The notes beneath the pieces were generated by a model. It was given only the letters and a program-made list of their open reading frames with translations, ran no database searches and had not been told where the DNA came from. The position numbers were made by a program, and so were the translations under genes. A stretch of 14,754 bases of DNA from a virus (lineage: Duplodnaviria; Heunggongvirae; Uroviricota; Caudoviricetes), in IMG/VR virus record IMGVR_UViG_2617270963_000012; one strand, given 5' to 3'. This document shows positions 1 to 898 of this stretch, in pieces. Position 1 is the stretch's first letter, and each line of letters begins with the position of its first letter.

Positions 1-432
1 GATGTGTTTGCCGGATACATCGTGGGGTGGCGGGTCTCATCGTCCATGGAAACGACATTCGTGCTGGATGCACTGGAGCAGGCGTTATGGGCCCGTCGAC
101 CGTCCGGCACGGTCCATCACAGTGATAAAGGTTCTCAGTATGTATCGCTGGCCTACACACAGCGGCTTAAGGAAGCCGGATTACTGGCATCAACAGGAAG
201 TACAGGCGACTCGTATGACAACGCGATGGCGGAGAGCATCAATGGTCTTTACAAAGCGGAGGTAATACACCGTAAGAGCTGGAAAAACCGTGCAGAAGTG
301 GAACTGGCCACACTCACGTGGGTGGACTGGTATAACAATCGACGATTGCTGGAAAGGCTGGGCCATACTCCTCCGGCAGAAGCAGAAAAAGCTTATTATG
401 CTTCCATCGGAAACGATGATCTGGCAGCCTGA
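1..432 (+). CDS. IS3-family transposase OrfB (DDE catalytic domain), 5'-truncated by the window edge
   Basis: Open frame runs in from position 1 to TGA at 430-432. Translation contains ...[10 protein letters not shown]...[20 protein letters not shown]..., i.e. the final acidic residue of a DDE triad followed seven residues later by K, the E-x7-K/R signature of IS3-family OrfB. The C-terminal tail ...[23 protein letters not shown] is also typical of that family. Exact IS name cannot be assigned without a database. Confidence 0.8.
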
Positions 433-439
433 GTTCACA
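1..439 (+). mobile_element. Right-hand part of an IS3-family insertion sequence; right boundary approximate (about 433-445)
   Basis: Transposase reading frame ends at 432 and scaffolding-protein-like coding sequence resumes within a few bases (gttcaCA|gataaaacactctcc). IS3-family right ends terminate in CA. The left end and any target-site duplication lie outside the window. Confidence 0.55.
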
Positions 440-898
440 GATAAAACACTCTCCAGGAAACCCGGGGCGGTTCATGTCGAACAGCAGCAGCAACAAAAAC
501 TACGTCAGCAACAGGAATACCAACAGCGTTTCCAGCAAAGGGTAGAAGCGCATAAACAACGGGCAGCCAAACTTCCTGTGAAAGATTATCAGGAAATGGA
601 GGCCATTGTTCTTAGTGAGCTACCACCAATTCAGCAGGAAATCATCATTCACTGTGCAGACGAAGGCTCTGAACTACTCGCCTATGGCTTAGGTAAGAGC
701 CAGCAATTACGCCAGCGTGTAGCCGCTGAGACAGATCCAATTCGCGCAGCATTCCTCTTGGGGCAGATTAGCAAACAGGTAAGCCTTGCTCCAAAACCAA
801 AGAAAGCCATCAAGCCAGAGCCGGAAGTACGTGGTGGCGGTGCTGATGCGAAACAAGACGAATTCAACAAATTATGCCCCGGCGCAAAAATCGAATAA
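434..898 (+). pseudogene. Phage scaffolding protein, C-terminal fragment of about 150 aa; 5' portion displaced by the IS insertion
   Basis: Frame of ORF 290..898. The region ...AAKLPVKDYQEMEAIVLSELPP...SELLAYGLGKSQQLRQRVAAE...KQVSLAPKPKK... has the Q/K/E-rich helical character and the position immediately upstream of the coat gene that P22 gp8 has. The ORF portion upstream of about 433 is read-through of IS sequence in another frame. Confidence 0.7.

Follow-up and report, generated by a model that had tools for sequence, protein, structure and literature searches.

The window analyzed here, the whole 14,754-nt stretch of virus record IMGVR_UViG_2617270963_000012, begins inside an insertion sequence and continues into the head genes of a P22/Sf6-type phage. 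Positions 1 to 474 (+ strand) are the 3' portion of IS629, a member of the IS3 family; the element is cut off by the start of the window and of its contig, and only its last 474 bp lie in the window. Over this stretch, copies annotated as 'IS3 family IS629' or 'IS629 transposase OrfB' in Stx-phage records were 99.6-100% identical to the window, and the 'IS3 family IS629' features of LC567824.1 and LC567828.1 were 99.6% identical over the 474 bp. From the frame 1 translation, we identified the C-terminal 143 codons (bases 1-429) of the DDE (rve) transposase OrfB of IS629, which occupies 1 to 432 on the + strand and ends with the stop codon TGA at 430-432. Bases 1-429 matched the Pfam families rve (E = 7e-17), rve_3 (E = 3.6e-12), and rve_2 (E = 6e-07). 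Beyond the stop codon lies the right terminal inverted repeat of 25 nt (450 to 474, − strand; reverse complement TGAACCGCCCCGGGTTTCCTGGAGA). When the ends of the window copy were aligned with those of two complete copies described below (loci L006 and L002), the right and left repeats matched at 23 of 25 positions. The right end of the window copy agrees with the known structure of IS629, namely imperfect inverted repeats with TG...CA ends; the 25-nt terminal repeat begins with TGAAC.

The full element at the identical junction, found in CP116919.1 (L006, 8256-9565), is 1310 bp long, and in the relatives that share this junction (L006 and L030) the 1310-bp element encodes a product of 404 aa. 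Elements of this family are expected to be about 1.3 kb long, with orfA and orfB joined by a programmed -1 frameshift, and the RefSeq annotation of the equal-length IS629 copy of L002 includes a programmed frameshift. IS1203 and IS3411 are isoforms of the same element. IS629 copies number in the thousands across E. coli genomes, and a query that included the IS matched 4180 of 5426 complete E. coli genomes, mostly via its IS part. An Rfam search of the window returned no match.

Phage homology begins precisely at position 475, and the sequence from 475 to 2181 is 99.2-99.6% identical to Sf6, HK620, and their relatives. Window base 475 corresponds to nt 4436 of Sf6, which is nt 462 of its gene 4 (3975-4859, 885 nt, 294 codons). 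Positions 475 to 898 (+ strand) are therefore the 3' remnant of an Sf6-type scaffolding gene (nt 462-885 of 885), sharing 99.4% nucleotide identity with Sf6 gene 4 over these 424 nt and lacking codons 1-154. Scaffold residues 155-294 are kept as 140 codons at 476-895, followed by the stop codon at 896-898, and they alone remain of the complete ORF of 294-303 aa that would be expected between the portal and coat genes. The fragment matched PHROG 648 'head scaffolding protein' (E = 2.4e-58, profile positions 133-274 of 286) and the Pfam family Phage-scaffold PF09306 (E = 3.5e-07, 30.3 bits against a cutoff of 25). Judged by these matches, it is genuine scaffolding sequence and no chance pattern.

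The fragment also aligned to residues 148-276 of the 303-residue P22 gp8, with its last 10 residues left unaligned. In P22 scaffold, residues 280-294 form the minimal C-terminal coat-binding helix-turn-helix domain. This helix-turn-helix is not matched by the last 10 residues of the fragment, and the presence of a coat-binding motif there is presumptive. The coat gene starts 11 bp past the scaffold stop. It is an intact P22/Sf6-type major coat protein gene of 423 aa (910 to 2181, + strand; Pfam P22_CoatProtein, E = 3.5e-142), and the identical coat protein is present in intact prophages with a 294-aa scaffolding gene upstream. The remnant thus lies directly upstream of the coat gene, as Sf6 gene 4, HK620 gene 8, and P22 gp8 do.

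A sequence-only reading made earlier had ended the transposase frame at 432 and proposed that an IS3-family element truncates the scaffolding gene, leaving only its C-terminal half contiguous with the coat gene. These points agree with our results: the stop codon is where it was placed, the element is IS629 by near-identity and its rve domain, and the remnant is followed by the coat gene at the positions given above. The same reading put scaffold sequence within about 10 bp of the transposase stop and counted about 150 remaining codons; the first figure gives way to an IS that continues to 474 with phage DNA from 475, and the second to 140 codons. As a finding that would overturn it, the reading had named a full-length scaffolding gene at another place in the prophage together with an unrelated ORF at 434-898; this is not what we found.

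A terminator scan predicted a stem-loop terminator after the coat gene (2186 to 2203, + strand), and a terminator is annotated at the same position in Sf6 ('t coat') and HK620 ('tGP5'). Toward the distal end, a single Mnt/Arc-like ribbon-helix-helix gene (9535-9828, − strand, 86-97 aa) lies between gp16 and the tailspike, in the place of the mnt-arc-ant immI region of P22; no ant gene is present there. The tailspike gene (9917 to 11536, + strand) is a pseudogene with two lesions. One is the nonsense change K24* (AAA to TAA at 9986-9988), and the other, at about 11435-11446, is the loss of 161 bp between 12-bp direct repeats (ATGGGTAATAAC), a frameshifting deletion that puts the gene out of frame past residue 510.

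The attR end of the remnant (11689 to 14754, − strand) is formed by intact gtrC-like (596 aa), gtrB (310 aa), and gtrA (120 aa) genes. The gtr genes serve O-antigen glucosylation, and matches to Pfam Glycos_transf_2 (E = 8e-32) and GtrA_DPMS_TM (E = 9e-14) were obtained. The 596-aa protein at the gtrC position (11689-13479, − strand) had no Pfam match at E <= 0.001 and matched only PHROGs of unknown function (22113, 13688); RefSeq names its relatives 'glucosyltransferase domain-containing protein'. It is longer than the GtrC proteins of 470-490 aa (PF14264) that stand beside an identical GtrA elsewhere. Since these serotype-conversion genes are intact, gtrABC may be the part that is being kept. 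We also noticed P22-like remnants at other E. coli sites (L025, L026, L027, and L029) in which gtrABC and the tailspike are kept and the head genes are lost. In one of them (L026, KB732530.1), the right end of an IS629 at 19695-20168 is 100% identical to window 1-474 and adjoins the gp7 gene. P22-like remnants with gtr are common at other E. coli loci, and it looks as if gtr has been retained recurrently while morphogenesis genes were lost.

To place the window in a genome, we compared it with draft and complete assemblies. It is 100% identical, with a one-base offset, to the start of draft contig JHDN01000022.1 (GCA_000601155.1), which itself begins inside IS629, the usual short-read assembly break at a repeat. 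The IS629/scaffold junction was base-identical in at least seven assemblies: CP116919.1, JHDN, JHDM, JHDL, PNRU01000037.1, ERZ1743135 NODE_811 (an ENA metagenome contig), and SRR1186482 (a Logan assembly). In the sister assemblies JHDL and JHDM, the contigs JHDL01000021.1 and JHDM01000019.1 likewise start inside IS629 and show the same junction, and every short-read contig of the lineage breaks inside the element. A portal gene or a full scaffolding gene was absent from all lineage contigs in the seven assemblies. Independent identical insertions were ruled out as the origin of the shared junction, given that it is base-identical and the flanking DNA is at least 99.9% identical.

An exact search of the GTDB representative genomes for the junction found none, and among complete RefSeq E. 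coli genomes, a set that does not include CP116919.1, none carried the junction and none covered more than 72% of the window. Look-ups of the 160-aa and 166-aa products of an ORF that spans the junction returned the three sister drafts alone, with contigs all starting inside the IS, and look-ups of GtrA and the tail needle were too unspecific to extend the lineage.

The sole complete genome with the identical junction is CP116919.1 (loci L006 and L030), an E. coli chromosome from the study PMC10198576, which is about 99.9% identical to the window over 11.4 kb. It shows what stands on the far side of IS629. The left end of the element adjoins a truncated erf gene on the opposite strand, retaining residues 49-201 of 201 (PHROG 155, E = 2e-32); the junction reads ...GCTGATTGATAAAAAC in erf, followed directly by TGAACCGCCCCGGGAATCC in IS629. 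The erf gene is followed by abc2, by ea-type genes, xis, and a lambda/HK97-type int, and after these by the chromosomal genes ybhC and ybhJ. Neither a scaffold 5' half nor a portal gene was found to the left of IS629 in this genome, and the immunity, replication, lysis, terminase, and portal genes are all absent between the truncated erf and the truncated scaffold. The 5' half of the scaffolding gene, which the sequence-only reading had looked for beyond the IS, is thus replaced there by a truncated erf at the IS left end, with no duplication. Its claim that the prophage is unable to make capsids is supported.

On the right flank, gtrA is followed by ybhB and bioA in CP116919.1, and by ybhB-bioA-bioBFCD-uvrB on the JHDM, JHDL, and JHDN contigs. 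On the K-12 map, ybhC and ybhB are neighbours that flank the lambda attachment site, and the match to HK106 starts at the annotated lambda-like attP of that phage. Between ybhC and ybhB, the remnant in CP116919.1 spans about 21 kb including the IS, and intact relatives span 38-46 kb. On the map of HK620, about 19 kb separate scaffold nt 462 (24116) from the recombination genes beside abc2 (about 5.3 kb), and this interval contains PL, N, the repressor, cro, cII, O/P, nin, Q, the lysis genes, terminase, portal, and the scaffold 5' half.

We also examined the immediate flanks of the complete element. No duplication of 3-4 bp was present in CP116919.1, the flanking bases being AAC on the left and TGT on the right (...AAAAAC-IS-TGTCGA...). 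A fresh IS629 insertion is expected to carry such a duplication, which the element normally generates, and the copy at this scar is without one; duplications were retained at 21 of 47 O157 sites (PMC3271280). The missing duplication therefore argues against a simple insertion, though not against the identity of the element as IS629, but such absence is common for IS629 and is not diagnostic by itself.

The left flank of the IS was observed in one assembly, CP116919.1, which carries apparent long-read errors. Its differences from the window are mostly 1-bp homopolymer deletions or changes of GGCAGCC to GGCGACC, and include those at window positions 426-427, 565-566, 7509, and 8308 (L006/L030). 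They have the look of systematic errors in the basecalling of long reads, perhaps at a methylated motif. These differences split gp16, gtrC, and perhaps int in CP116919.1, and the apparent pseudogenes there are untrustworthy. A protein search with the Erf fragment for the left-junction contig of the window strain returned only other erf truncations with different junctions. These Erf proteins of other E. coli assemblies (P0001, P0002, and P0004) are truncated or fused at varying points: there are hybrids of 182 aa and 199 aa whose N-termini are unrelated, and 137-aa partials, the latter with 159 member sequences. In such prophages erf has thus been broken repeatedly and independently.

Taken together, we propose that an Sf6/HK620-type (Lederbergvirus-like) prophage at the lambda attB has lost about 19 kb from its interior and that IS629 sits at the scar, a reading to which we assign a probability of roughly 0.85 on comparative sequence grounds. 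In CP116919.1 both arms of the prophage stand in native order and orientation between the neighbours ybhC and ybhB, which implies one prophage with its middle missing. One end of IS629 lies at codon 154 of the scaffolding gene and the other, as seen in CP116919.1, at codon 49 of erf, on the opposite strand. The lost segment would comprise the erf 5' end, PL, the immunity, replication, and nin regions, Q, the lysis genes, terminase, portal, and the scaffold 5' half. That the window strain shares the left junction of CP116919.1 is highly probable, in view of the near-identity of the two and their common right junction. As to the route, IS629 may have entered erf or the scaffolding gene and then generated an adjacent deletion; alternatively, a copy in erf may have recombined with a directly oriented second copy in the scaffolding gene. 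The route is inferred, and adjacent deletion and two-copy recombination are indistinguishable from the product. The remnant is predicted to be non-inducible and non-assembling, with late genes that have neither promoter nor Q and are decaying further. The intact tailspike of an inducible P22-like prophage is lacking here as well (K24* and the 161-bp deletion).

The window contig stops inside IS629 and its left flank is not directly seen, so we considered whether the element had simply transposed into an otherwise complete prophage, with the scaffold 5' half and the portal gene directly beyond its left end. Such events do happen: in a prophage of E. coli strain 405 the same gene is interrupted by IS629, the insert is flanked by a 3-bp duplication, and portal and terminase are intact upstream. 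For the present lineage, however, this is improbable: in CP116919.1 the other end of the element abuts a truncated erf and no duplication is present, only about 21 kb separate ybhC from ybhB, and neither a portal gene nor a full scaffolding gene stands on any contig of the lineage. Judged from the loci compared, somewhat less probable still is a rearrangement by recombination between IS629 copies that carried the missing segment, moved or inverted, to a different place in the chromosome, with its genes still in the genome. These genomes contain multiple IS629 copies, and inversions mediated by IS elements are known, but retained arms in native order and orientation between the adjacent ybhC and ybhB are the signature of a deletion, and one arm would be flipped if an inversion had an end point within the prophage. 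Because neither arm is flipped, inversion is unlikely, and we rejected it on the geometry of the retained arms.

A further question is whether the truncated gene could be expressed from the element. The scaffold frame is open from position 290, that is, back into IS629, and yields a hybrid IS-scaffold ORF (398 to 898, + strand) that starts at ATG 398 (166 aa) or ATG 416 (160 aa) and runs in frame into codons 155-294. This ORF is called as a gene in the drafts, with 160 aa in JHDN and 166 aa in JHDL and JHDM, and its residues KPGAVHVEQQQ span the IS/scaffold junction. The fragment corresponds roughly to P22 gp8 141-303, with which procapsid-like assembly proceeds both in vitro and in vivo (bioRxiv 10.1101/2022.12.13.520362). 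One could thus imagine a domesticated module, in which read-through from IS629 makes a hybrid scaffold together with coat protein and gives empty procapsid-like shells, or poisons the assembly of superinfecting Sf6/HK620-type phages. Consistent with it, the scan predicted no terminator on the + strand from 432 to 910, the frame continues open from IS629 into the fragment, the aligned part of P22 gp8 (148-276) falls within the region that suffices for procapsid-like assembly, the coat gene is undamaged, and seven assemblies preserve the junction. If true, the remnant would be an accidental prophage-encoded exclusion function against incoming Sf6/HK620-type phages.

We regard this as very improbable, the least likely of the alternatives weighed here. 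A promoter scan of 1-2400 found sites no more often than in shuffled sequence, which leaves an outward IS promoter unsupported, and no good ribosome-binding site was found for the hybrid ORF. The late promoter and Q appear to be deleted, decay is under way in the late genes nearby, the fragment does not align to the P22 coat-binding helix-turn-helix over its last 10 residues, and clonal descent explains the conservation of the junction. The terminator at 2186-2203 would end a read-out transcript from the IS without Q antitermination. The hybrid ORF is most likely an accidental by-product. The suggestion of the earlier reading that read-out might express the surviving piece finds some backing in the open frame and the P22 141-303 analogue, and none in promoter or ribosome-binding signals, which do not rise above chance. 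Since portal and terminase are missing, the scaffold fragment could not rescue the phage in any case.

Returning to the deletion reading, we traced the lesions of the remnant through its relatives, and found them nested. The IS scar is present in all seven assemblies, the 161-bp tailspike deletion in the JHD trio only (JHDN, JHDL, and JHDM), and K24* is confined to the window and JHDN. An intact 596-aa tailspike is found in L006, L019, L033, and L034, including relatives with the same IS scar. The lineage offers an example of stepwise prophage decay, from an IS-bounded deletion to a tailspike deletion to a tailspike nonsense change, with gtrABC kept.

The appropriate annotation is a partial IS629 followed by the 3' fragment of a scaffolding pseudogene in a defective prophage remnant, and not an interrupted but otherwise complete prophage. 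More generally, an IS at the edge of a draft contig cannot be read as a simple insertion without its other flank. The element (IS629), the gene (Sf6 gene 4/P22 gp8 family), and the decay process are all already known, and the significance beyond annotation is little, this being ordinary IS-associated prophage decay.

The closest comparison is the prophage of E. coli strain 405 (NZ_CM132957.1, L002), a close relative that looks otherwise complete and has IS629 in the same gene; of several strain-405 records, only this one matched an IS-plus-scaffold query over at least 80% of the query length. There the element lies at 11165-12474, after nt 73 of the scaffolding gene, with a clean 3-bp duplication (ATC) on both sides; the match in a single strain-405 record suggests that this insertion is very recent. 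Strain 405, with its intact portal and terminase upstream, thus represents a plain insertion, whereas the window lineage carries a deletion scar at a different site of the gene. Many gene inactivations and genomic deletions in E. coli have been attributed to IS629 (PMC9943667; PMC3271280). The scar resembles the 'grounded' or cryptic lambdoid prophages and the IS629-linked deletions of O157, in which IS629 likewise stands without a duplication at a multi-kb deletion and cryptic lambdoid prophages retain a lysogenic-conversion module, as gtrABC is retained here (PMC3271280, PMC9943667, PMC6379469). In contrast to those EHEC O157 cases, the prophage described here is a P22/Sf6-like podovirus at the lambda attB with gtrABC, in a different host lineage.
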